61,877 bases of DNA, taken from the NCBI GenBank assembly GCA_014730165.1, contig WJIS01000026.1, forward strand, positions 1 through 61,877, in the 5' to 3' direction. A program made the translations under genes and the position numbers. The DNA is from Promethearchaeota archaeon. GTDB lineage: Archaea > Asgardarchaeota > Lokiarchaeia > Sigyniarchaeales > SOKP01. The notes below the pieces were generated by a model, which had not been told where the DNA came from, searched no databases, and saw only the letters and a list, made by a program, of their open reading frames with translations. Shown here in pieces: positions 1,296 through 58,323 of the stretch (positions are counted from its first letter, which is position 1; each line of letters starts with the position of its first letter).

Positions 1296-2714
1296 TTAAG
1301 TAAAGGTTGGTCTTTTATCTTGCCAAGGTTGAATTTTTTCAAATGCTCTTGAGACTTGAAGCACTGTTTTTTCATCAAATCTCCTTCCAACTATTTGCAT
1401 ACCAATGGGGGTACCTTTACTTGACCATCCACAAGGAATTGAAGCCGCCGGTAATCCTGTAATATTGAAAGGTCCTGTATATGCGTACCATCCCGAATGA
1501 GAAATTGCTCTTCCATTAATTTTTAATGGTCCGGGAATTCCTAATTCAAACGCCGGAATAGCTGTTGTTGGAGTTATTAATAGATCAAAAATTTTGAAGT
1601 ATTCATACATAAGTTTGTTAAGTCTTATTCTCTGTTCAATAGTTCTTTCGACATCCATGGCTGATAATGGATATGCAACTTCAATCTGTTTTAATAATGT
1701 AGGGCTTAGATCGGTTTTCCATTCTTCAAGTAATTTTTGTAGATCATATGCAATTCCCTTAGTAGAAAAAGTATACATAATATTTTCAGCCTTTCTTAAT
1801 CTTAATTTAACCTCTTCGACAGCCCAATCTTGATTTTCAAATAAATGAACTGATTTTAAGAAGGTTTTTTCTACATCCTTATTCACTACTTTGGAAACAC
1901 CTAATTTTAGGTCATAACCGATTCTTAATTTTTCTGGTTTTTCATTTATTACTTCAAAATAACTAATAGTATCATCCGGTAAGGAAAATGAATCTCCCAT
2001 ATGAGGTCCTTTTATTATGTCTAAAAGAAGAGCAGCATCCGTTACATTTCGAGTGATAGGACCATAATGATTTAGAGAATAATCCATATTTCCAATTCTG
2101 GGATAGATAGGGACTCTCCCATGGGTTGGTTTAAATCCATATGTACCACAAAGTGCGCTAGGGACTCGAATGGAGCCCCCACTATCTGAGCCTATAGCTA
2201 AAGGACTAATTCCTGAAGCGACTGCCGCAGCAGCCCCTCCACTGGAACCACCTGGCGTTTTGGAGAGATCCCATGGATTTTTTGTTTCTCCAAAAATAGG
2301 ATTATCAGTAATTGTGATATGACCGAACTCAGACGTATTTGTTTTACCTAAGATAACACAAGATGCCTTTTTTAATCTGTTAACAACAATTTCATCATTT
2401 TCAGGTATAAAATTCTCATATATCTTAGATCCAAACGTTGTCCGTATTCCTTTCGTCATTATTAGATCTTTGATGGAGATTGGAATACCATAGAGAGGTC
2501 CTATCTCTTTTAAGTTCTCTAAGGATTTATCTAACTTTTTAGCTGTTTCTATAGCCAATTCATAGGTGGGTGTGGAATAAGCATTGATGAGGGGATTGAT
2601 TTTTTTTGCTCTTTCAATAATAGCATTTACAATTTCTTCACAACTAAGTTCTTGAGATCGTATTTTTTTTGCCATTTCATATGCTGGCATAAAACAGACT
2701 TTTTCTTGTTTCAT
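1296..2714 (-). CDS. Amidase-signature family amidase (GatA-like)
   Basis: 472-aa ORF with the Gly/Ser-rich amidase signature GGSSGGAAAAVASG, GSDSGGSIRVP and SIKDL. It is the tandem paralogue of 2811..4229. Confidence 0.85.
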   Translation of the reverse strand: MKQEKVCFMPAYEMAKKIRSQELSCEEIVNAIIERAKKINPLINAYSTPTYELAIETAKKLDKSLENLKEIGPLYGIPISIKDLIMTKGIRTTFGSKIYENFIPENDEIVVNRLKKASCVILGKTNTSEFGHITITDNPIFGETKNPWDLSKTPGGSSGGAAAAVASGISPLAIGSDSGGSIRVPSALCGTYGFKPTHGRVPIYPRIGNMDYSLNHYGPITRNVTDAALLLDIIKGPHMGDSFSLPDDTISYFEVINEKPEKLRIGYDLKLGVSKVVNKDVEKTFLKSVHLFENQDWAVEEVKLRLRKAENIMYTFSTKGIAYDLQKLLEEWKTDLSPTLLKQIEVAYPLSAMDVERTIEQRIRLNKLMYEYFKIFDLLITPTTAIPAFELGIPGPLKINGRAISHSGWYAYTGPFNITGLPAASIPCGWSSKGTPIGMQIVGRRFDEKTVLQVSRAFEKIQPWQDKRPTFT

Positions 2715-2810
2715 ATCAAATACCTCAAAAATCTATATCCATAATTAAAAAATATTCACATGTAATCATTAAATAAAGAAAAAAAGAAAAGATTTAAAAA
2801 GTAATCTAAT

Positions 2811-4229
2811 TTAAGTAAAGGTTGGTCTTTTATCTTGCCAAGGTTGAATTTTTTCAAATGCTCTTGAGACTTGAAGCACAGTTTCTTCTTTGAATCGTTT
2901 TCCGATAATTTGCATTCCAATGGGGGTACCTTCACTTGACCATCCACAAGGAATAGAGGCGGCGGGATTCCCAGTTAAATTAAAAGGGAAGGTAAATGAC
3001 ATCCATGCAACCGGAGAAGCTCTTTTTCCAGCTATTTTTGAAGGAAACATTTTTCCAAGCTCAAAAGGATATACAGCTGTGGTAGGAGTGAGGATTACAT
3101 CAAGGTTTTTAAATTGTTTAAAAATTTCTTCATGTATAAGTTTTCTCTGATACATAGCTGCTTCCAGATCTACTGCTGAATAGCTAAGCCCTGCTTGTGT
3201 CATAAGAACTAAATTTCGACTCATTCTGTCTTGCCATTCATCGAGATATGATTCTAGATCATGTGCTAATCCTGCGGTGACTAAAGTATTGAATGTCATT
3301 TCAGGTCGTTTGAGCTTCATTTTAATTTCTTCTAAGGTCCAGTTAAGATCTTCGAATTTTTTAATTGAATCCATAACAACTTTTTCAACTTCGGGATTAA
3401 CTGCTTTTATAAATCCTAGATTAAATGAATATCCAATCTTTATATTTTTAGGTTGTATATCAACAAGATCAAAATATTTGATATCATTTTTTGGTAAAGA
3501 ATGTCTATCCCCTTCAAATGGTCCTGCCATTACATCCAGCATTAATGCGGCATCTTTTACATACCTTACAATAGGTCCATAATGGTCTAAACCCGTCCAT
3601 TTTATTCCAGCAGAGGGATAATGTGGAATTCTCCCATACGTTGGTTTCAAACCATATACTCCACAAAAACTACTTGGAATTCGTATTGATCCTCCTCCAT
3701 CAGATCCAAGTGCTAATGGTCCCATCCCAGTTGCTATAGACGCTCCAGCACCTCCACTAGACCCTCCTGAAGTACGTTCCAAGTTCCATGGATTTTTTGT
3801 TTTCCCAAAAATCGGATTATCAGTGACTGCTTGATGACCGAACGCAGGGGTGTTTGTTTTTCCAAGCAATACCATTCCTGCATTTTTTAGTCTTTCAATT
3901 ACCACCTCATCTACCTCGGGGACATTATTCTCATAGATAATACAACCGAATGTTGTCCTAATTCCCTTTGTCAAGACTAAATCTTTTATGGAAGTAGGTA
4001 CACCATGTAGAGGAGGGAGGTTTTTACCCTTCTTTATAGCCTTATCAGCTTCTTTAGCTGAATCTCTGGCGATATCAAATGTGGTTGTGCAATATGCATT
4101 TATCCGTTCATTGAACCTTTCGATCCGTTCGATAATCGCTTCAGTTATTTGTAAGGAAGTTAATTCTTGAGTTTTTATCTTCTCTATCATCTCGTAGGCT
4201 GGGAGATAACAGATTTCTTCTTTGTTCAA
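2811..4229 (-). CDS. Amidase-signature family amidase (GatA-like), tandem paralogue
   Basis: 472-aa ORF with GGSSGGAGASIATG, GSDGGGSIRIP and SIKDL. It has the same length and the same C-terminal 24 aa as the neighbouring amidase. Confidence 0.85.
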   Translation of the reverse strand: MNKEEICYLPAYEMIEKIKTQELTSLQITEAIIERIERFNERINAYCTTTFDIARDSAKEADKAIKKGKNLPPLHGVPTSIKDLVLTKGIRTTFGCIIYENNVPEVDEVVIERLKNAGMVLLGKTNTPAFGHQAVTDNPIFGKTKNPWNLERTSGGSSGGAGASIATGMGPLALGSDGGGSIRIPSSFCGVYGLKPTYGRIPHYPSAGIKWTGLDHYGPIVRYVKDAALMLDVMAGPFEGDRHSLPKNDIKYFDLVDIQPKNIKIGYSFNLGFIKAVNPEVEKVVMDSIKKFEDLNWTLEEIKMKLKRPEMTFNTLVTAGLAHDLESYLDEWQDRMSRNLVLMTQAGLSYSAVDLEAAMYQRKLIHEEIFKQFKNLDVILTPTTAVYPFELGKMFPSKIAGKRASPVAWMSFTFPFNLTGNPAASIPCGWSSEGTPIGMQIIGKRFKEETVLQVSRAFEKIQPWQDKRPTFT

Positions 4230-4391
4230 TTAAAATCACCTCATATTTCATTAAAAAGAGTATTGATAATTTTTAATATAAATACTTTCCTTCTTAAATT
4301 AAAAAATTTATACTTTATTTGGGAAAAATCTATAACTTCCGATTTTTCATATATAGTAGATTCAATTACGAAAATGAGTTAGATTTATTTT

Positions 4392-6044
4392 ATGAAAGAA
4401 TACAAATTAACTAAATTAAGTAATTTTTCAGGGAGAAACGGTCCTCTCGCTTTAATCATAATGGATGGAATTGGATTAGCTCATAAGGGAGAGTCTAATG
4501 CATTTAACAGAGCAGAAACACCTTTTTTGGATAATGTAATTATTAAATGTATCAAAAAAAATCTCTATACCTCTCTTAAAGCTCATGGAACATCAGTCGG
4601 ACTTCCCACCGATAATGTAATGGGTAATTCGGAAGTTGCGCATAATGCTCTTGGTGCTGGAAGAATTGTCAAGCAGAGAGCAACTTTAGCAAAAGAAGAA
4701 ATACTTTCTGGAGATCTGTTCAAGTCTGAGAAGTGGAAGCAAGCTATGTCTGCTTTAAAAGCAAAAAAGAAAACTTTACACCTAATTGGTTTATTATCAG
4801 ACGGATATGTGCATAGTCACATTTCTCATCTTTTTGGATTAATAGATGGAGCAGTTAGATCGAATATAGAGCGAGTAAGGATCCATGCATTACTAGATGG
4901 AAGAGATGTTCCTCCACAATCTTCATTAGAATATATTTCAAGCCTTAATAAGAAACTGAGTAATATTAATAATGAAAAGTTGTTTGATTATCGAATAGCA
5001 TCTGGAGGAGGAAGAATGCACGTTACAATGGATAGATATTATTCGGATTGGGAAGTGGTCCGGAGGGGATGGGATGCTCATGTATGTGCAATAGCAGAAG
5101 AAAGCTCTGGTTATGAAGGATATTTCAAATCTGCGACTGAAGCCATTCAAAGAGCAAGAGAACAAGATCCTGAAATAAGTGATCAATATTTACCCTCCTT
5201 TGTTATAGTTAATAATGATAATCAACCCATCGGGAAGATGGTCGATGATGATTGTGTAATTAATTTTAATTTTAGGGGAGATAGAGCAGTAGAGATTTCA
5301 GAAGCATTTGACGATAAAGAGTATGGTTTTGAAAAAAAATGTAATCCGAATGTTGTATATTATGGTTTAGAACAATATGATAAAAAAAAACAACTCCCAA
5401 GGAATTATTTTATCGAGCCACCGGAAGTTGAAGACCCACTTTCAAAATATTTATGCAATGCTAAAGTTAGACAATTTGCTCTCGCTGAAACTCATAAATA
5501 CGGACATATCACCTATTTTTGGAATGGGAACAAAGAAGGATATGTTTGTCCAGATTACGAAGAATATATTGAGATAAAATCAGATCCAAGTGAAATGATT
5601 GAAAATAACCCCGAAATGAAAGCTTTTGAAGTTAAAAATAAGTTCCTCAATGCACTTAAATCAAAAACTTATGATTTCTTAAGGGTTAATTTTGCTAATG
5701 GAGATATGGTGGGTCATACAGGTAATATTAACTCTGCAATTATCGCAGCTGAAACAGTTGATAAATGCATAAAAGAAATAGTTGATAGGGTAACTGAATT
5801 GGAAGGTATTGCGTTAATAACCGCTGATCATGGTAATCTTGAGGAGATGGAAAAAGGAAAAGAAACTGCCCATTCACTCAATCCGGTAATGTTTGCTATA
5901 GTAGACTCGCAATATAATAATGAATATCAAATAAACAAAAATATAAAAACTCCGGGTTTAGGAAATGTCGCTGCTACGATTTTAAATTTATTAGGCTATA
6001 ATAAACCCAAAAGCTTTATGGAATCATTATTAGATTTTAAATAA
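4392..6044 (+). CDS. gpmI: 2,3-bisphosphoglycerate-independent phosphoglycerate mutase, GpmI type
   Basis: 550 aa. Motifs are MDGIGL near the N-terminus, GNSEVAHNALGAGRIV and C-terminal ITADHGN/GDMVGHTG, characteristic of cofactor-independent PGM of the alkaline-phosphatase superfamily. Confidence 0.85.
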   Translation: MKEYKLTKLSNFSGRNGPLALIIMDGIGLAHKGESNAFNRAETPFLDNVIIKCIKKNLYTSLKAHGTSVGLPTDNVMGNSEVAHNALGAGRIVKQRATLAKEEILSGDLFKSEKWKQAMSALKAKKKTLHLIGLLSDGYVHSHISHLFGLIDGAVRSNIERVRIHALLDGRDVPPQSSLEYISSLNKKLSNINNEKLFDYRIASGGGRMHVTMDRYYSDWEVVRRGWDAHVCAIAEESSGYEGYFKSATEAIQRAREQDPEISDQYLPSFVIVNNDNQPIGKMVDDDCVINFNFRGDRAVEISEAFDDKEYGFEKKCNPNVVYYGLEQYDKKKQLPRNYFIEPPEVEDPLSKYLCNAKVRQFALAETHKYGHITYFWNGNKEGYVCPDYEEYIEIKSDPSEMIENNPEMKAFEVKNKFLNALKSKTYDFLRVNFANGDMVGHTGNINSAIIAAETVDKCIKEIVDRVTELEGIALITADHGNLEEMEKGKETAHSLNPVMFAIVDSQYNNEYQINKNIKTPGLGNVAATILNLLGYNKPKSFMESLLDFK

Positions 6045-50608: not shown

Positions 50609-51520
50609 ATGGAAAAGCTTGAAAAGTTTGTAATAGTTGGACCGGGATCCCAATTACTCGGTGTAAAAATCGCTAATATTTTAGGAATAAATCATATAAA
50701 TACAGAATTTAAATCCTTCCCTGATGGGGAAATTTATCTGAGACTTAATTTGGAAGATGAAACATTATTAGAAAATAAGGAAATAATAATTATCCAATCG
50801 ACAGGACCTAGTGCTAATAGTGACCAAAACTCTCGTCTTTTTGAACTTTTAATGATAATTGATGCAGTTAAGCGAATTGGAGTGGAAAAGATTAGTGTAA
50901 TTGTTCCTTATCTTGCTTATGCGAGACAAGACAAGATTTTTAGACCTGGCGAATCAGAATTTGCGAAAAGAGTATTAAAGCTAATTGATATAATGGGGAT
51001 TGATGAATTTTTTGTTGTAGACATTCATGCTCCAGAAGTTTTAGAGGTAATGAGTTGTAAGACAGTTAATATCGATTCTATGGATGTGTTAGCAAAATCG
51101 ATCCGAGATATGGGAGCAGAGGATATTGTTGTTGTCTCTCCTGATAAAGGTGCGATTGAACGCTCAAAAGCTTTTGCGAAGCATTTTGGAGATAATATCC
51201 TTGTGGATGTTTTTGAAAAGAAACGAGATGTAAAAACCGGAGAGATTACAATGTCAGGTTCATTAAGCTTGGAAAACAAGGATGTAGTTATCGCAGATGA
51301 TATCATCGCAACGGGAGGGACAATGGCGACTGCAATCAAGTTAGCCCGTAAAAGTGGAGCAAATAAGATATATGCCGCTGCAACCCATGCATTAATGCTC
51401 CAAAATGCTAAATATAGAATTTTAAGCGCAGGAGCAGATGAGATTATTGGTACTGATTCAATAGATAATGAGGTAAGTAGAGTTTCTTTGGCAAATGTTA
51501 TAACAGATTACTTAAAATGA
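50609..51520 (+). CDS. prs: Ribose-phosphate pyrophosphokinase
   Basis: 303 aa. Motifs are FPDGEIYLR, YLAYARQDK, VVDIHA and the PRPP-binding VVIADDIIATGGT. Confidence 0.85.
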   Translation: MEKLEKFVIVGPGSQLLGVKIANILGINHINTEFKSFPDGEIYLRLNLEDETLLENKEIIIIQSTGPSANSDQNSRLFELLMIIDAVKRIGVEKISVIVPYLAYARQDKIFRPGESEFAKRVLKLIDIMGIDEFFVVDIHAPEVLEVMSCKTVNIDSMDVLAKSIRDMGAEDIVVVSPDKGAIERSKAFAKHFGDNILVDVFEKKRDVKTGEITMSGSLSLENKDVVIADDIIATGGTMATAIKLARKSGANKIYAAATHALMLQNAKYRILSAGADEIIGTDSIDNEVSRVSLANVITDYLK

Positions 51521-51534
51521 ATTAGTCGACTAAA

Positions 51535-52077
51535 TTAGTAATTATTAATTATTTTAATACAAAGCTCTTTTGTTTTTTTTTTTAGATCCGATTTTGTGGA
51601 TTTATTTTCTATAGTATAATTTGCATTCTTGATTACTTCATTTATACCAAAATTTTGTTCTCTTTTATCCCGAAGATTTAAATCTTCTATAGTTTTAGGA
51701 TCATCTTCCCTAGATCGTTCCTTAATAATTCTAAACCTTTTCTTATCAGAAATAATTATAGCTATTACCGGAAATTTCTGCTGTTTTCGAAAGTACTTAA
51801 CTTCATCCATAGATCTTAATCCATCAACAAAAATTGTATCTATGTTCATTGTTTTGATTTCTTCCATACAGCGTTTGGCAATAACCTCTGGTCCATATTT
51901 ATCTCTCAATTCTTTAGCGATTTTACCAAGGTTTTTATCGTTTAGTTCGATATCACGTCTTAATAATTCATCTCTCACAACATCACCCATATTCATCACT
52001 ATCCCTAAATCTTTTACCGCATCTATCGCTGTACTTTTACCAGAGCCAGCTAATCCACAGAATCCAATCAATTTCAA
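51535..52077 (-). CDS. P-loop nucleotide/dephospho-CoA-kinase-like kinase (UPF0200-like)
   Basis: 180 aa. Walker A is GFCGLAGSGKST. Start is a TTG at 52077. The first 32 nt of the CDS lie inside the 65-bp direct repeat. Confidence 0.6.
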   Translation of the reverse strand: MKLIGFCGLAGSGKSTAIDAVKDLGIVMNMGDVVRDELLRRDIELNDKNLGKIAKELRDKYGPEVIAKRCMEEIKTMNIDTIFVDGLRSMDEVKYFRKQQKFPVIAIIISDKKRFRIIKERSREDDPKTIEDLNLRDKREQNFGINEVIKNANYTIENKSTKSDLKKKTKELCIKIINNY

Positions 52078-52110
52078 GAGATTTCACTTTATTGTAAAGA
52101 TAGATTTATA
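52046..52110. repeat. Direct repeat copy 1 (att-like), spanning the kinase gene 5' end and 33 nt upstream
   Basis: ccagctaatccaCagaatccaatcaatttcaagagatttcactttattgtaaagataGatttata; 63/65 identical to 56910..56974. Confidence 0.9.
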
Positions 52111-52397
52111 TCCCAATATTGCATTTCTTAACCAAATTTTATATGTTTTAATCTCAAATAAATATATTTACTAGTCCTTATCCGATAAATTTCCGATAAG
52201 AGGAGGAAATATAAATGAAGTTAGTGGAAAGAGGGTAACGATCACTTGAGCCGTTATCTTATCTGCCTTCAAAAAGATTAAATAACGTGCCAAATCAAGG
52301 TTGGAACTTTGTCTATTAGGTACGCCACGAGCAATATTCCTTAGCATGGAATACCTATCGAGAGCAACTCTTAGCCGACATTGGAGAGCAAGTCTTT

Positions 52398-53591
52398 ATG
52401 TCAGTCACCGCCTCTTTAGTAAGTAGTATAATCATTTCTGTATTAACCGCAGCAAGTTGGGGAGTAGGAGAACCCGCTGCGAAAGCAATAGCTCATCTCG
52501 CCTATTTGAGAATTTATACCTTAATGACCAAGATGTTTATCGACATGGATATGAAAATTGCTGAAGCTCAAAAACGAGCGAGCACATTCTATCCCGTTGG
52601 AAAAGAAAAGAAGGATCCCGTCTCTCTTAATGAACGTTGTCTCACCGATAGGCTATTAGGAGAAGGGATGATCGCTGCCCTAATCGGAGCGCCTGGAGGG
52701 GTTTACACCACCGCTACCGGAGGAGACCCGGGTAATCGCTACAGTGCCGAAGTCTTAGTGACTCCTCCAAACTACGCTCGTATGGGAAGAAGTTTAGGAG
52801 GATTTATCGATCTCTTATGGGAAAACTTCTGGAGCATAGGAACCTCTGACCCCGATACTTTTACCGCCTTAGATTTCGATGATCAAAACATCGATTATTT
52901 CATGCTTACCAGCCAATTAACCTCACTCAATTATAATCCCTCCATCACCTTCACTCCTTCAAACGATCCGCTCAATCCATATCATATGTACGGGTTAAAT
53001 ACCTTAGGATATGCAGAAGGAATTGTTTCAACCGCTTCTGATGATGAGTTTAATACGATTCAAGCAACCAATATTAATGGCAATCCGCATTATGAATTTG
53101 TAGATGGAATTCGTACCTATGATACCGTGTTACCGCAATCCGGCTTATATCATCCGTTAGTTTTATCTCAAGACAGACTGGGAAAAGTACATCTTCCAAA
53201 AGGACATCTTATTATTGAGGTAAGAGCTACGGGTCTCGGAGGAGAGCGAAAGGGAATGAATCCTCTCAAAATGAGTGCGGCAGAACACACCGCCTACGAG
53301 CAGAAGATTCCCCTCAATCCAAACGGCTTCCATTATAACATTACAAAAGTATGGGTCGATGTCGCCCGAGAAGCCGAATTTGAACAAAAAACCTCTTCAT
53401 ACGGTACCGGTAGCAAGATCATTACCAGCATCCCAATACAAGATATTGCGGTAAATCAAAGTGATTATGTTATTGAGAATGGAAATCTCTATTTTACGAA
53501 ACCTATCGAAGAAATTATAGGTTCTGTCGCAGGAGCATCTTATCAATCCGATCTCAGAACATCCTTAAAAGGAGAGGGGAAATATATTTAA
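52398..53591 (+). CDS. Orphan protein with a hydrophobic N-terminus, GC-richer than its surroundings
   Basis: 397-aa ORF with a Gly/Thr/Pro-rich composition unlike neighbouring genes. The frame stays open for 26 codons upstream of the ATG, back to a TAG at 52317-52319, so the 5' end may be eroded. Confidence 0.5.
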   Translation: MSVTASLVSSIIISVLTAASWGVGEPAAKAIAHLAYLRIYTLMTKMFIDMDMKIAEAQKRASTFYPVGKEKKDPVSLNERCLTDRLLGEGMIAALIGAPGGVYTTATGGDPGNRYSAEVLVTPPNYARMGRSLGGFIDLLWENFWSIGTSDPDTFTALDFDDQNIDYFMLTSQLTSLNYNPSITFTPSNDPLNPYHMYGLNTLGYAEGIVSTASDDEFNTIQATNINGNPHYEFVDGIRTYDTVLPQSGLYHPLVLSQDRLGKVHLPKGHLIIEVRATGLGGERKGMNPLKMSAAEHTAYEQKIPLNPNGFHYNITKVWVDVAREAEFEQKTSSYGTGSKIITSIPIQDIAVNQSDYVIENGNLYFTKPIEEIIGSVAGASYQSDLRTSLKGEGKYI

Positions 53592-53607
53592 ACAATTATT
53601 TTAATAT

Positions 53608-53646
53608 TCTCCCTCCCCCGTGGTGCCCCCTCCTGAAAATTCCTCC
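53608..53646 (+). repeat. C-rich ...TGAAAA 3'-flank motif, copy a
   Basis: tctCCCTCCCCCgtggtgCCCCCTCCTGAAAAttcctcc, 17 nt after the stop of 52398..53591. Confidence 0.7.
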
Positions 53647-53747
53647 TAAAAAATTTATAAATCACTCATCCATTCAAAACTTTTTTGAGAATCTATTCTA
53701 ATATAAGTTAGATAAAAATTAAAAGTATGTAATACATACTTACATAC

Positions 53748-53978
53748 ATGAGAACTAATATTGTGATTGATGATGAGTTAAAGGAGAAGTGGTGGGAGAT
53801 TAAAAGAGAAGCAGATCATCTTAACATGAAAATTGGCGATTATATTATTTTTTGTCATGATCTCAGAAAAAAGATGGCGAATAAGGATAAGATTCTTGAG
53901 ATTTTAGGAAATCCATTATCAGATGGTTTAAAAGATGTAGATGTAATAAAGGCAAGTAAGAGTATGTGGAAATCATGA
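53748..53978 (+). CDS. vapB: VapB-like antitoxin
   Basis: 76 aa. The N-terminal MRTNIVIDDELKEKW is typical of VapB-type antitoxins. It overlaps the downstream PIN gene. Confidence 0.65.
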   Translation: MRTNIVIDDELKEKWWEIKREADHLNMKIGDYIIFCHDLRKKMANKDKILEILGNPLSDGLKDVDVIKASKSMWKS

Positions 53979-54388
53979 GGGGGATAGATTCGAATATTCT
54001 TGTGTATGCATTGAATAAAGATCTTCCTGAACATTTACCTTGTAAGGAACTTTTAATAGATATCGTTAACGGAAATGAACTTGTGAGTATTCCTTCAATT
54101 GTTTTTATGGAATGTTTCCACGCATTAGTTAAAGCATTTAAATATAAAGAAGTTGAGGTTAAGAAACGATTAATTGCAATCATCGATTCAAAAAATATTA
54201 ATGTCTTAGACATATCGACTTCCTCAATTTTATTTGCATTTGAGATTGCTGAAAAATATAGAACGGGAGGGAGGGATTCCTTAATCGCAGCAAGTTTATT
54301 AGAAAATAAGATTCAAGAGATCTATTCTCATGATTCAGATTTTGATAATATAAAACTCATAAAACGGATTGATCCAATTCAATTTTAA
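53975..54388 (+). CDS. vapC: PIN-domain toxin (VapC-like)
   Basis: GIDSNILVYAL (first acidic residue), ECFHAL, GGRDSLIAA and SHDSDFDNI supply the PIN acidic quartet. The ATG at 53975 overlaps the vapB stop (ATGA); the track start is 53966. Confidence 0.8.
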   Translation: MRGIDSNILVYALNKDLPEHLPCKELLIDIVNGNELVSIPSIVFMECFHALVKAFKYKEVEVKKRLIAIIDSKNINVLDISTSSILFAFEIAEKYRTGGRDSLIAASLLENKIQEIYSHDSDFDNIKLIKRIDPIQF

Positions 54389-54405
54389 ACTAGCTAAAGT
54401 AATAA

Positions 54406-54451
54406 TCTCTCTTTTCTACCTACCTCCCCCATGTTTTCCCCTCTTGAAAAG
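54406..54451 (+). repeat. C-rich ...TTGAAAA 3'-flank motif, copy b
   Basis: ...ctaCCTCCCCCatgttttCCCCTCTTGAAAAg, 18 nt after the vapC stop. Confidence 0.7.
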
Positions 54452-54539
54452 CTAATTTCAAACTTCCAAATTGTTTTTCTTCAGTAATCCTTTTTTTGCT
54501 TCTTAAATACAATTATAAGGAGATTCTGCATACTTTTCA

Positions 54540-55046
54540 TTGAATTTGAGTGGAAATTTGGATGGAAATAGAATAAAAGAATTACCAAATTGCATCTCGA
54601 ATTTACTCAATTTAGAAGGATTAATAATGCGTAATAATATTATAAAAAGTATACCAAATTCAATAGGGAATATGAAGAGTTTAGATTCCATTATTTTGAG
54701 TAATAATCAAATTTCAAATATTCCAAATTCGATTTGCCAGCTCGGAAATCTTGAAACATTAGCATTAGATAATAATCAAATCTCAAAATTGCCCGAATGT
54801 ATTGAGAATTTAACGAATCTTATCGATCTTTCCTTAAAAGATAATGAATTAAAGGAATTACCTAAAACTTTTATTAATCTAAAACAATTAAGTGGGTTAG
54901 ATTTAAGTAATAATAATTTTACTGAATTTCCCGAAATTTTAAAAGAAATGAATCTATTTGAACTTGACATCTCGGGAAATCCAATCGAAGAATTTCCAAA
55001 CAAGCTAAAGAATATCAAGATGAAAGAAAAAGGTAAGTATATATAA
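54540..55046 (+). CDS. Leucine-rich repeat protein (LRR-only, possibly a fragment)
   Basis: 168 aa. Six to seven 23-aa LxxLxLxxNxIxxIP repeats (e.g. LDSIILSNNQISNIPNSICQLGN). TTG start and no partner domain. Confidence 0.65.
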   Translation: MNLSGNLDGNRIKELPNCISNLLNLEGLIMRNNIIKSIPNSIGNMKSLDSIILSNNQISNIPNSICQLGNLETLALDNNQISKLPECIENLTNLIDLSLKDNELKELPKTFINLKQLSGLDLSNNNFTEFPEILKEMNLFELDISGNPIEEFPNKLKNIKMKEKGKYI

Positions 55047-55363
55047 TCTTACGCTACTAGATCGGTTTGGTTAACATCTTATCCTTTTCACTTGCAATAA
55101 GATTCTATTCTAAAAAGAATCTATATCTATCTAATAGACTTTGAGATGAGGATAAAACACGTTCCCAAAGGTTGATCCTTTTGTCGAAGAATTTTCTAAT
55201 GGTCATTAATCCAATGTATTTTTTATCTTCTCACATGGAGACAGATCCTGTGTGCAGATAGTGATCATGAACGATCTTGATCTCCACGTCAAATCTCGTG
55301 AATTGGTAAACATATTAACCCAGAAACCGAAAAAAGGCAAAAGAGCTTCAAGCACTCCGTAGA

Positions 55364-55654
55364 ATGCGCCCAATTCGTGAACCATCCATTAAGATCTATT
55401 TATTTTCAAACTCTTTGGAGAGTCATATCGAGCCAACTCATTATATCAACTTAAACAGTCTCAAGAAAGCATCCGATATTTTCAATGATAATTATGAAGG
55501 ATTAACCAAAACCGAGATTTATAACAAAATCGCTGGTAAAACCACTGAAAAAATCAGAGCTATCGAAATCTTACAATTCACGGGAAAGAAGATATGTCGG
55601 GTAAGGGTAAGACACTATGGAGATCGGATTAAACCATCCGTTTTACTCTGCTAA
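55364..55654 (+). CDS. Hypothetical protein (possibly a gene fragment)
   Basis: 96-aa ORF. A separate short ORF in another frame (MNDLDLHVKSRELVNILTQKPKKGKRASSTP) lies directly upstream, suggesting a disrupted gene. Confidence 0.3.
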   Translation: MRPIREPSIKIYLFSNSLESHIEPTHYINLNSLKKASDIFNDNYEGLTKTEIYNKIAGKTTEKIRAIEILQFTGKKICRVRVRHYGDRIKPSVLLC

Positions 55655-55830
55655 TTACCCATTTCTCTTCTTTTATTATTATAGAGGGGAGGAAAATTAA
55701 GCTATCTAAAAGGAGTTAAAATTATTTTTATCTATTTCTTATTATTTTGCTAACTTTTGGGTAAAAATTTCAATCAAAAATATTGTAATCTTCCACAGAC
55801 TAACAAGATTTCCGCGTTGAGAAAAAAGAT

Positions 55831-55860
55831 CCCTTTCAAAGGGAGGAAAAGGATGGAGAG
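55831..55860 (-). repeat. C-rich ...TTTGAAA 3'-flank motif, copy c (minus orientation)
   Basis: The minus strand reads ctCTCCATCCttttCCTCCCTTTGAAAggg, starting 13 nt after the stop of the minus-strand PIN gene. Confidence 0.65.
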
Positions 55861-55873
55861 ATATATTCAGTCA

Positions 55874-56284
55874 TCATAAATTAATTCCCTCGTAGAATAA
55901 ATCCGTATTGAATTTTGCTTTGAAAAGTGCTAGTCTCTTGTCCAGAGCCCCGATCCCCTTACTTTCTATTGATAAAGCTAATGCGATAAATGGAATATCT
56001 TTGGGATCTATTTTGCCAATAATTTTTTCAGCTCTATTCATTTCATCAAAATATTCCTCTTCTACTACAACAATAATCTTTTCATGGATAATTTTAACTA
56101 ATTCATCTAATTCCTTTTCAGTACCACCGAATTTCTCAAGAATAGCGGATTTATATTTCTCTAATTCAATATTGTAAAAATCTGGAATGTAAAATGTAAA
56201 ATTAGGACTTAATAAGATTTCTCTAGTTATTGATTTTTTCATAAGTTCCGAGAAGATGATGTTGGAATCTATGATTAACTTCAT
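55874..56284 (-). CDS. PIN-domain protein (toxin of a second TA pair)
   Basis: 136 aa. The N-terminal MKLIIDSNIIFSEL has the conserved Asp, with further acidic positions (EEEYFDE, DPKDIPFIALA). It shares a 4-nt overlap with the upstream small gene. Confidence 0.65.
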   Translation of the reverse strand: MKLIIDSNIIFSELMKKSITREILLSPNFTFYIPDFYNIELEKYKSAILEKFGGTEKELDELVKIIHEKIIVVVEEEYFDEMNRAEKIIGKIDPKDIPFIALALSIESKGIGALDKRLALFKAKFNTDLFYEGINL

Positions 56285-56523
56285 TTTTTCAAGGTTTCCA
56301 AGTAATATTTATATCTCTGCCACATTTTTTCCTTTATTTCATCCCCGAATTTGTCTGCCTCTTCCAATGTGAAATTACTTTTTTCTGCTAATTTATTCGC
56401 AACCTCCAGTTTCTCTAAATAGTTTTCAATTGCACATTGAGCTACCTTTTCCCAATTAATTTCGGGGTATTTTTTCATTTTTTCCAATATATCTTGTGAA
56501 AAGGAAAATCTGATATCGGTCAT
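56281..56523 (-). CDS. Putative antitoxin partner of the PIN protein
   Basis: 80-aa helical ORF, translationally coupled (ATGA overlap) to 55874..56284. Confidence 0.5.
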   Translation of the reverse strand: MTDIRFSFSQDILEKMKKYPEINWEKVAQCAIENYLEKLEVANKLAEKSNFTLEEADKFGDEIKEKMWQRYKYYLETLKK

Positions 56524-56774
56524 ATTCCATCTATAAATTTTATGGAAGGTAGAATTTATAATTTTTTCTCTTTATTTCTATTCTTCCTCAGATTATTAGT
56601 TTCTGACTATTCTTTTTAGTTACAAAGTTAATTTTTTCTATTATATATAGGTATATTAAGTTCTGAGTTCTAAGGTATCCTCAGTTCTCAGATCCTATAT
56701 ACCCTCTTTTTTCATCATCAAAATTTATGTATTCATTTAAAAACCAACTGAGACTTCCCGCCGAAAGAAAGAAT

Positions 56775-56808
56775 TCTTTTCAAAGGGGAGGGAAAGGAAG
56801 GGGGTATA
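56775..56808 (-). repeat. C-rich ...TTTGAAAA 3'-flank motif, copy d (minus orientation)
   Basis: The minus strand reads tataCCCCCttcctttCCCTCCCCTTTGAAAAga. It lies about 20 nt after the stop of a 13-codon minus-strand ORF remnant next to repeat copy 2. Confidence 0.65.
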
Positions 56809-56909
56809 TACCATTCTCATGACTTTAAATCTCTGTAAAGAAAGAGGAGTATTGAATTATATCCATAAATAGAAACAAATGATGAAAAAAAGCCCTCCGA
56901 CAAAGTTAC

Positions 56910-56974
56910 CCAGCTAATCCATAGAATCCAATCAATTTCAAGAGATTTCACTTTATTGTAAAGATAAATTTATA
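56910..56974. repeat. Direct repeat copy 2 (att-like), carrying a truncated duplicate of the kinase gene start
   Basis: ccagctaatccaTagaatccaatcaatttcaagagatttcactttattgtaaagataAatttata. On the minus strand it reads TTG-KLIGFYGLAG and then a stop. Confidence 0.9.
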
Positions 56975-57102
56975 AAACATTGAATAAAACTTAAATCTAT
57001 ATAAAATATTAAGCATAAAAAATAAAATAATATTAGCAAGATCCTATATTGTTATAGAGATTTCACTTCTTGAATATAATTCAGATCCAGATTGAATTAA
57101 TT

Positions 57103-58323
57103 ATGGTGAATTATTCTAATAATAGAAAGAGTGAACAAAACAAAGAGGGAACCTATGAAAGATCGCTTCGTAGTCCTGAATTGATGAAGTTCCTCAAAAA
57201 AAAAGATAAGACTGATGATAAGGAACAAGATAGATTTATTAAGGTTAAGTGGAAAGCATATCGTCGGATAGTTGGTTATGCGATTAGGTATGCAAACAAA
57301 GATATATCCTCTAGTAAATGGAGAGAAGTTTATGGAATTTTAGTGGGGAGCATAGAGGATAAGAATATTGTTTTGGTAAAAGATGCTATACCAATGATAG
57401 TTGGTGATAGAGCAGGTGTAAAATATGAAAACAAACAGTATGTAGATATGGCACAAATTGATGCTTCAATTTTTGAAAGATCTATACATGATAACAAGAA
57501 TGATTTTATTATAGGTTGGTGGCACACGCATCCGGGATTTGGATTTTTTTTATCTCCTATTGATTGTCTAACTCAATTAGGGTATCAGATACCGAATCCA
57601 AAAGCCATCGGACTTATTTTTGATCATACAAAAATGGATTCTAAATCATTAGGAATTGGTGTCTTAACGTTAAAAAATCCAGAAATAGGTGTGAGGTCTA
57701 GTTATCACATTATCGAAAATATAGAATATGAATTAGAACAATCGAAAATGGTTAAGAAAGCTAGAAAAATCATGGATAGAGTAAAGAAAAACAATGAAGA
57801 TATAATAGAAAATATTAATTATATCCAAGAAACTCTCATAAATAAAGGGTATTATAAATTACAAGAGGAATTCGGACTCATACCAGAACGAAATCAGAAT
57901 GAGGTCCCGATTGATGAGCAAATTCAACGCATAAACGAGGAAAATGTGGAATTTATTTGGGATATGACGGATTCAGAAGCAGATTATACCATCCCCAAGT
58001 TTCGGCAAGACTTAGAGGAGGAACTCAAAGATTATCATGAAGAACTCAAAAAGCTCCAAGAGGATGAAGAAAAAGGAAAATTAAAACAGAAAAAAAAGAA
58101 ATATAATAAGAAAATAATTTCGAAGCTAGAAAAACCAACCCAATGGTATCTCAAGTTATTGAGTGATTTCAATGATAAATTAGAGAAGATATCAGATTTT
58201 TTCGATTATCTTGACACAAATGAACGCAAAACGATAGAGAGCTTCGAAAAAAAACTTTCTAATTATCATGATGTGTTGGAAGAAATTCTCCATTGGGCAG
58301 AATTTTCTGTATTTGAGAGCTAA
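57103..58323 (+). CDS. JAMM/MPN+ metalloprotease domain protein with a long coiled-coil C-terminal tail
   Basis: Complete JAMM motif: EVYGILVG (Glu) and GWWHTHPGFGFFLSPID (HxHx7Sx2D). The C-terminal ~200 aa are K/E-rich heptad-like. First ATG at 57103; the track starts at a TTG at 57070. Confidence 0.8.
   Translation: MVNYSNNRKSEQNKEGTYERSLRSPELMKFLKKKDKTDDKEQDRFIKVKWKAYRRIVGYAIRYANKDISSSKWREVYGILVGSIEDKNIVLVKDAIPMIVGDRAGVKYENKQYVDMAQIDASIFERSIHDNKNDFIIGWWHTHPGFGFFLSPIDCLTQLGYQIPNPKAIGLIFDHTKMDSKSLGIGVLTLKNPEIGVRSSYHIIENIEYELEQSKMVKKARKIMDRVKKNNEDIIENINYIQETLINKGYYKLQEEFGLIPERNQNEVPIDEQIQRINEENVEFIWDMTDSEADYTIPKFRQDLEEELKDYHEELKKLQEDEEKGKLKQKKKKYNKKIISKLEKPTQWYLKLLSDFNDKLEKISDFFDYLDTNERKTIESFEKKLSNYHDVLEEILHWAEFSVFES

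Follow-up and report, generated by a model that had tools for sequence, protein, structure and literature searches.

How did 4.9 kb of DNA come to lie between a kinase gene and the gene that it faces in most of the Asgard loci compared, with the first codons of the same kinase repeated at the far end? This question is raised by contig WJIS01000026.1 of a Promethearchaeota archaeon (Asgardarchaeota; Lokiarchaeia; Sigyniarchaeales; assembly GCA_014730165.1), whose entire stretch of 61,877 nucleotides was analysed and is called the window below. In the window, a P-loop kinase gene (51535..52077, minus strand) is separated from a divergent JAB/MPN-domain gene (57070..58323, plus strand, ATG at 57103) by an island framed by two 65-bp direct repeats. 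An initial annotation, made from the letters of the sequence, had seen in these repeats the geometry expected of attL and attR after site-specific integration into the 5' end of a gene, and had offered three explanations, namely a decayed element, an element mobilised in trans, or one using an unrecognised recombinase. Our best reading is that the island is an att-flanked genomic islet, or the remnant of a cryptic integrated element, in a poorly sampled lineage.

Direct repeats and insertion at the kinase gene

Within the window, a repeat finder and an approximate pattern search recovered the 65-nt direct repeat exactly twice, at 52046-52110 (copy 1) and 56910-56974 (copy 2). The copies are identical at 63 of 65 positions, as first described, and none of 100 dinucleotide-preserving shuffles of the window contained two matches to the repeat. 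The two mismatches fall at positions 13 and 58 and leave a perfect central core of 44 nt. In agreement with the initial annotation, the repeat holds the first 32 nt of the kinase coding sequence (codons 1-11, with a TTG start at 52077) and 33 nt of upstream DNA, and its edge, read on the minus strand, is TATAAAT, a TATA-like box at -33 to -27 of the kinase start. Copy 1, which is attL-like, therefore contains the live codons 1-11 of the kinase together with the upstream 33 nt, and the N-terminus of the gene reads MKLIGFCGLAGSGKS. Copy 2, which is attR-like, translates as MKLIGFYGLAG followed by a stop, with Cys7 replaced by Tyr, so that promoter region, start codon and the 11 codons are repeated here in a dead form; a dead partial duplicate is what the initial annotation, too, had seen. 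Neither copy is assigned a strand.

The ends of the repeat are sharp. Local alignment of 200 nt on each side gave no flank similarity above that of shuffled controls, on which ground a longer ancestral duplication around the repeat was rejected, and alignment of the two island ends with each other revealed no inverted repeats. Immediately inside copy 1 lies an arm of 129 bp (52111..52239, no strand) with no recognisable gene, in which we noted a ribosome-binding-site-like GAGGAGG and an ATG-started open reading frame (ORF) of 7 codons.

The target gene itself is intact. Its 180-aa product (AAA_17/AAA_18, PF13207/PF13238) aligns end to end with 180-aa Asgard relatives, which are annotated at source as 'dephospho-CoA kinase-like'. 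In total 556 relatives were retrieved, among which the top named matches are from Promethearchaeota/Lokiarchaeota and other Asgard metagenome-assembled genomes, the best at 60% protein identity; an exact-sequence look-up returned no record for the kinase, nor for the 397-aa protein of the island described below. In many relatives the kinase start is preceded, at a distance of about 28-34 nt, by a TATA-like box, an example being TCTAAATATTTAAATTATATTC in L005, L007, L010-L012, L027, L028 and L030. The TATAAAT of the window lies at the same distance, a coincidence which, in DNA this rich in AT, counts for little.

Comparison of gene order shows which side of the island is original. Gene calls around three relatives gave the conserved order Alba, JAB/MPN, kinase, PRPP synthetase, hydrolase and NifU, in which JAB and kinase are divergent and lie 118-312 bp apart. 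A profile-based scan with one genome per species added 80 further kinase loci, and by tblastn JAB stands directly upstream of the kinase in 32 of the 37 Asgard loci fetched, with the PRPP synthetase gene (prs) downstream of the kinase in nearly all of the 37. The window conforms, with NifU, hydrolase and prs on one side of the island, and JAB, Alba, VTT-domain and cyclophilin-like genes on the other. The pseudo-start of copy 2 (56941) lies 161 bp from the JAB ATG, inside the range of the relatives. Given the conserved JAB-kinase adjacency and this distance, the 4,864 bp of extra DNA between kinase and JAB constitute an insertion. On the evidence of gene order, copy 2 marks the ancestral position of the kinase 5' end, in keeping with the earlier view that the side of copy 2 is the original one, and the stretch outside it (56975..57102, no strand) is, by the gap sizes in relatives, native kinase-JAB intergenic DNA. 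As far as sequence can tell, the insertion with its attL/attR geometry is real.

Two small features of the repeat region may be recorded here. The 13-mer AGAGATTTCACTT stands directly upstream of the kinase start within both repeats (52078-52090 and 56942-56954), and a third copy precedes the JAB gene at 57056-57068, 114 bp off; the recurrence may reflect an operator that both sides of the divergent intergenic region share, or chance. On the minus strand at 56880-56895, just inside copy 2, GGAGGGC is followed by a run of seven T, at which transcripts initiated in copy 2, from the repeated promoter of the kinase, might end short of the RHH-PIN_2 operon, encoded on that strand too.

Cargo of the island

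The content of the island resolves into two toxin-antitoxin (TA) modules and three gene fragments. The first module, on the plus strand, comprises a PIN-domain, VapC-like toxin (53975..54388; PF01850, E 4.7e-14) and, upstream of it, a putative VapB-type antitoxin of 76 aa (53748..53978), for which the VapB_antitoxin match is weak (E 0.027) and the role is deduced from its position. The second module, on the minus strand, pairs an RHH_12-type antitoxin of 80 aa (56281..56523), whose relatives are annotated PF26688, with a PIN_2 toxin of 136 aa (55874..56284; PF10130, E 1e-22), and relatives likewise pair RHH_12 with PIN_2. In both pairs the genes overlap by a 4-nt ATGA, so that two modules show the arrangement that characterises type II VapBC-like systems, a PIN toxin preceded by a small overlapping antitoxin gene. 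The PIN_2 toxin is disrupted after about residue 107, compared with relatives of 142-150 aa.

The second module belongs to a mobile cassette (55878..56664, minus strand), recognised by its DNA identity to copies in different neighbourhoods. Including about 140 bp upstream, the cassette is 92.4% identical over 788 bp to L107 (1-780); identity is 90.3% over 568 bp to L110 (7652-8216) and L111, and about 77% to L108 and L112, and each of these copies sits in a different gene neighbourhood. A DNA identity of 90-92%, set against a best protein identity of 60% for the host kinase, points to recent movement of the cassette between lineages. On these comparisons, the RHH_12-PIN_2 cassette appears to have moved horizontally, and recently.

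The initial annotation had listed two PIN modules, an ORF consisting only of leucine-rich repeats (LRR), broken ORFs and a GC-richer orphan; the first three items hold, whereas the orphan proved to be an internal fragment of a giant Loki gene and a 96-aa ORF proved to be what is left of a P-loop protein of about 490 aa. The giant-gene fragment is a pseudogene (52240..53591, plus strand), whose annotated part is the 397-aa ORF at 52398-53591. Its frame runs upstream of this ORF through an in-frame stop at 52317-52319, and the start near 52240 was set by eye. By tblastn the stretch 52314-53522 matches residues 3281-3669 of a 4954-aa ORF (43.6% identity, E 2e-95), about 8% of the giant gene, and the 397-aa ORF has five homologues at 42-45% identity, all of which are longer and extend past both of its ends. 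Relatives of the giant gene were found on 20 metagenomic loci, with full-length ORFs of 4,523-4,954 aa (L102, 77-14941; L098, 374-13945; L090, 5-14359). No Pfam domain was detected in the giant gene of L102, and a search for toxin or immunity domains in the C-termini of the giant proteins and in the ORFs downstream gave nothing significant. In L102, the one locus examined in this respect, the giant gene adjoins genes for Lokiactin and F420-type redox proteins.

The high GC content of the fragment (42.6% vs. 31%) might be thought a mark of foreign origin. We rejected it as proof: in each of the nine other loci checked, this part of the giant gene exceeds the locus mean in GC by 2-11 points, and the excess is thus partly intrinsic to the gene. 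A side observation concerns L103, where a truncated giant-gene relative of 1147 aa is followed by an LRR-only gene; a specific kinship of this gene with the LRR ORF of the island was considered and rejected, the similarity being that of generic repeats.

The LRR-only ORF of the island (54540..55046, plus strand, 168 aa, TTG start) begins inside a repeat unit and is, by that token, probably a fragment. The third fragment is the 3' remnant of a gene for a P-loop protein of about 490 aa (55286..55654, plus strand), equivalent to the C-terminal fifth of the protein and to residues ~384-476 of the relatives P0225 and P0227. Here tblastn aligned 55286/55331-55588, and the 96-aa ORF (55364-55654) matches residues 402-476 of these ~491-aa proteins at 63% and 41% identity. 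The complete genes (L114, 506-1981; L115, 1111-2592) lie on short contigs among small, co-directional, overlapping and unannotated ORFs. Their products show, as judged by eye, a Walker A (GTGKS) and a Walker B (LIIDES) motif and two Cys clusters, and have no match in Pfam, PHROG, NCBIfam or, by sequence, PDB. An AlphaFold model of the family, at a pLDDT of 51, was too poor and was not used for a fold search. The protein may be a helicase of a mobile element, and its C-terminal remnant is the only candidate for a backbone gene in the island. Altogether, of five coding units three are no more than fragments, and in one of the toxins the C-terminus is disrupted, for which reason a decayed element fits best among the three explanations originally offered.

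A C-rich motif at the segment boundaries

A C-rich motif of about 30 nt, TCCCTCCCCCGTGGTGCCCCCTCCTGAAAA, occurs four times inside the island and, according to a sequence-only model, nowhere else in the 61.9-kb window; the island copies score from E 6e-11 to 2e-7 and the next match E 0.67. Two copies lie on the plus strand, m1 (53599..53648, with its 30-nt core at 53610-53639) and m2 (54411..54460, E 1.6e-10), and two on the minus strand, m3 (55823..55876, E 1.8e-7) and m4 (56767..56819, E 1.2e-8), and the motif is not palindromic. Each copy stands at a boundary between unrelated segments: m1 between the giant-gene fragment and the VapB-PIN module, m2 between that module and the LRR ORF, m3 between the segment with the P-loop remnant and PIN_2, whose 3' end is truncated here, at the limit of its DNA homology to L107, and m4 between the upstream region of the second TA module and the attR arm.

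Elsewhere in 0.8 Mb of Asgard loci the motif was found twice, both times in L098 (14893-14922 and 15752-15781), and it had no match in viral contigs. In L098 both copies are downstream of the giant gene, one at either end of an 859-bp unit that contains two small ORFs, paralogues of each other; one copy of the motif is followed by a gap of NN and the other stands at the contig end. The 30-nt core of m1 is 100% identical to both, even though the giant proteins are only about 40% identical. No motif was seen on the sequenced flanks of the nearest TA relatives (L107, L110), and the motif is accordingly no part of the TA cassette. This C-rich 30-mer, tied to giant-gene loci and to the junctions of the island, is the most unusual by-product of the analysis.

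Survey of the remaining ORFs and of the window

Tests of all listed island ORFs of 40 aa or more yielded TA components, the LRR-only ORF and gene fragments, and nothing else. The earlier statement that no tyrosine or serine recombinase, transposase or replication gene could be found was borne out by Pfam searches of island ORFs and fragments, in which no integrase, transposase, Cas1 or replication family appeared; unannotated ORFs of the island, apart from the 96-aa ORF and the two PIN toxins, had no match in PHROGs or NCBIfam either. Outside the locus there are 38 ORFs of at least 150 aa, of which 30 were scanned, these being the further window ORFs of at least 180 aa; they contained no recombinase and are metabolic or housekeeping genes of an ordinary kind. 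A tRNA gene, and with it a tRNA target, is absent from the window, and in 51400-57400 Rfam returned only a sub-threshold snoRNA match (E 0.14). The proteins compared with viral contigs were the giant-gene fragment family, PIN, PIN_2, the 96-aa ORF and P0225, none of which had a relative there. Far from the island, two amidase paralogues of 472 aa each lie in tandem at 1296-2714 and 2811-4229, both on the minus strand (PF01425, E 4e-114 and 8e-120).

Origin of the island

On balance we lean, with modest assurance, towards the view that the island is a relic of site-specific integration, from which the recombinase and the backbone have been deleted and in which the remaining DNA has been reshuffled. 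Such a history would begin with a circular DNA carrying an attP-like site, that is, a segment of about 65 bp matching the core promoter and the first 11 codons of the kinase. The circle would have recombined with the chromosomal copy, most likely by means of a site-specific tyrosine-type integrase which has since been deleted, and the crossover would have fallen inside the 44-nt perfect core; a slight mismatch between attP and attB would then have left both mismatches in the arms around that core. Integration into a 5' end must resupply promoter, start and early codons, and the span of the repeat fits a kinase that went on working after the insertion: at attL the gene would have stayed whole, TATA box and start included, and attR would be a dead promoter-plus-stub, next to which the JAB side of the former intergenic region was left as it had been. 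The insert would then have been eroded and reshuffled until two selfish TA pairs, one of them recent and already damaged, and three gene fragments were left, and the island would no longer be self-mobile. Its cargo, in which TA modules stand beside truncated genes, is of the kind typical of eroded islands. Of the original reading as attL and attR, then, the geometry stands, with the kinase intact, whereas a site-specific mechanism is only suggested by it; we infer the circular donor, the enzymatic site-specific crossover, the later loss of the integrase and the promoter function of the duplicated TATA region.

Several results weigh against this history. The insert does not look like a coherent element backbone, at least one of its fragments coming from a giant-gene family that in L102 stands beside Lokiactin and housekeeping-type genes, and no hallmark gene of a mobile genetic element was identified in the island. 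The initial annotation had advised a search of the arms and gaps for recombinase remnants; neither there, in stop-to-stop fragments, nor in the small ORFs did any appear at Pfam E<=10. A split integrase of the SSV type was rejected as well, the six-frame fragments across the repeats being at most 50 aa long and none of them integrase-related. Within the repeat, inverted core-binding arms amount to a trivial 5-mer, and a 28-mer of the repeat core had no exact match in the metagenome and viral contig collections. An empty site had also been proposed as a check. The expected gene order does exist, as given above, but only in distant relatives (best kinase 60%), so that the empty sites are empty at the level of gene order rather than of nucleotides, and a duplicated kinase 5' end was seen in 0 of 39 other Asgard loci. 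As a separate observation, the JAB-kinase interval is altered elsewhere too: L037 holds a gene for a 1144-aa secreted protein there (1710-5144), and JAB is absent beside the kinase in L015 (9439-10001), L022 and L034, none of which has a duplicated kinase 5' end.

The same geometry would arise if a circle that happened to carry the kinase 5' segment, perhaps looped out or excised from a genome almost identical to this one, had entered by a single RadA-type crossover, through the general homologous recombination of the host and with no element recombinase at any time. Since no recombinase or remnant was found, the repeat has no recognisable recombinase core and the content is a patchwork with no backbone, including a giant-gene fragment and an LRR-only ORF, this deserves a hearing as the foremost rival. 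We nevertheless regard it as unlikely, as perfect identity extends over no more than 44 nt of the short shared segment, whose limits coincide with the TATA box and codon 11, as if selected to preserve the target in the manner of evolved att sites, and no source of such a circle was seen. That the island is still mobile, as a non-autonomous element served by a recombinase in trans or by an unrecognised one of its own, seems improbable to us. In its favour, identity between the att-like copies is still 97%, the frames of both TA operons are intact (one toxin being C-terminally disrupted), and the island contains unannotated DNA and an uncharacterised family. Against it, the listed ORFs are TA components, the LRR-only ORF or gene fragments, the 30 further window ORFs scanned include no recombinase, and the collections searched have no second copy, attP or occupied site.

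A shade less probable still is a piecemeal build-up at a variable intergenic hot spot by way of the C-rich motif, whose copies would have recombined with one another or received insertions, with the 65-nt repeat as a by-product rather than a classical att. Four copies confined to the island, each at a junction of unrelated segments, speak for it, as do the perfect identity of the core to the L098 copies near a giant gene of about 40% protein identity and the altered intervals of L015, L022, L034 and L037. The motif, however, leaves the duplication of the kinase 5' end unexplained, is missing from the flanks of L107 and L110, occurs in two orientations, is not palindromic as attC sites are, and is carried by only two genomes in the data. 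Bolder, and in our estimation very doubtful, is the idea that the motif is the recombination site of an undescribed, Loki-type cassette-shuffling system, and that the island is a transplanted piece of its array, moved to the kinase promoter by an in-trans recombinase recognising a promoter-plus-5'-end att. We think it just as improbable that an assembler threaded a free circle, or DNA of another strain or locus with the 44-nt core, into the chromosomal path. The window is a whole metagenomic contig (61,877 bp), repeats are classic points of mis-joining, and the hybrid attB/attP pattern of mismatches is expected either way, integrated or co-assembled. Against this, a repeat of 65 nt, 44 of them exact, is shorter than ordinary reads, which should span both junctions; the 4.8-kb interior, in which there is no replication gene, could not maintain itself as a free replicon; and a circle, had one been threaded in, would itself imply a real attP-attB pair.

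Implications

The integrated elements described from Asgard archaea are few, and according to a 2024 study (PMC11529989) the aloposons, to which we return below, had until then been the only non-viral ones reported. To these the locus, read as a relic of integration, adds a clean att-like scar in a Loki-type genome, and shows the promoter and 5' end of a gene as a target while the target gene survives. It further illustrates that TA cassettes are exchanged between Loki lineages at about 90% DNA identity, and that pieces of 5,000-aa giant genes are scattered around genomes, accompanied by a rare and perfectly conserved C-rich 30-mer. Nothing here overturns current ideas; having neither a recombinase nor a second copy, the locus alone cannot reveal a new mechanism of integration.

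Comparison with known systems

Among known systems, transposons, insertion sequences and casposons can be set aside, given that the island has no terminal inverted repeats and no transposase or Cas1, and that a 65-nt duplication is too long. The target site duplication of casposons measures 14-15 bp. Integron cassette arrays, which are known in archaeal metagenome-assembled genomes, consist of an IntI integrase, an attI site and cassettes in one orientation, each ending in a palindromic attC. The island resembles them in that its units are short and of gene size, are often TA pairs, and have a brief conserved site behind each; we rejected an integron-like array all the same, there being no IntI-type integrase, and the motif being present in both orientations, non-palindromic and missing from the nearest TA relatives. 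There is a likeness, too, to the chromosomal cassettes of type II TA (VapBC-like) genes, selfish and horizontally mobile modules of genomic islets, in the form of two small antitoxin-PIN operons, one of them 90-92% identical in DNA to copies that have unrelated neighbours in other Loki contigs. These modules account for what persists in the island, not for the origin of the island or of its 65-nt flanks.

Aloposons of Heimdallarchaeia consist of tandem complete giant genes (3,000-6,000 aa) with four conserved upstream genes, including a ParA/MinD ATPase, and are integrated at tRNA genes (Wu et al. 2022, PMC8813620). The island shares with them an Asgard host and a giant gene, of which it holds a shard (from a gene of 4,500-5,000 aa), and thereby echoes the truncated and fragmented giant-gene pieces that were also noted in genomes (PMC8813620). 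With one internal shard of about 8%, no tRNA in the window and no ParA, it was rejected as an aloposon on the grounds of gene content and target site.

In SSV1-type integration, attP splits the integrase gene, and an integrated element can therefore seem to have no integrase, as the island does; the Int(N) and Int(C) halves that would then stand at attL and attR were not found here. The nearest comparison is with the cryptic integrated elements of archaea and the integrated plasmids and viruses of crenarchaea. Cryptic integrated elements are defined by their integrase, and the island, which has none, falls outside that definition; its cargo of fragments and TA modules, with no replication, partition or structural genes, is also unlike theirs. 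The target differs as well, the repeat covering a promoter and a 5' end, whereas the protein-gene targets catalogued in Thaumarchaeota are 3'-distal regions in 14 of 14 cases (Krupovic et al. 2019, PMC6563490). In its architecture, on the other hand, the island agrees with these elements, which likewise have direct repeats over the end of a host gene and leave that gene intact, and its 65-bp repeat and 4.9-kb size lie within the 29-69 bp of crenarchaeal att sites and the 2.6-98 kb of archaeal cryptic integrated elements (PMC6563490).

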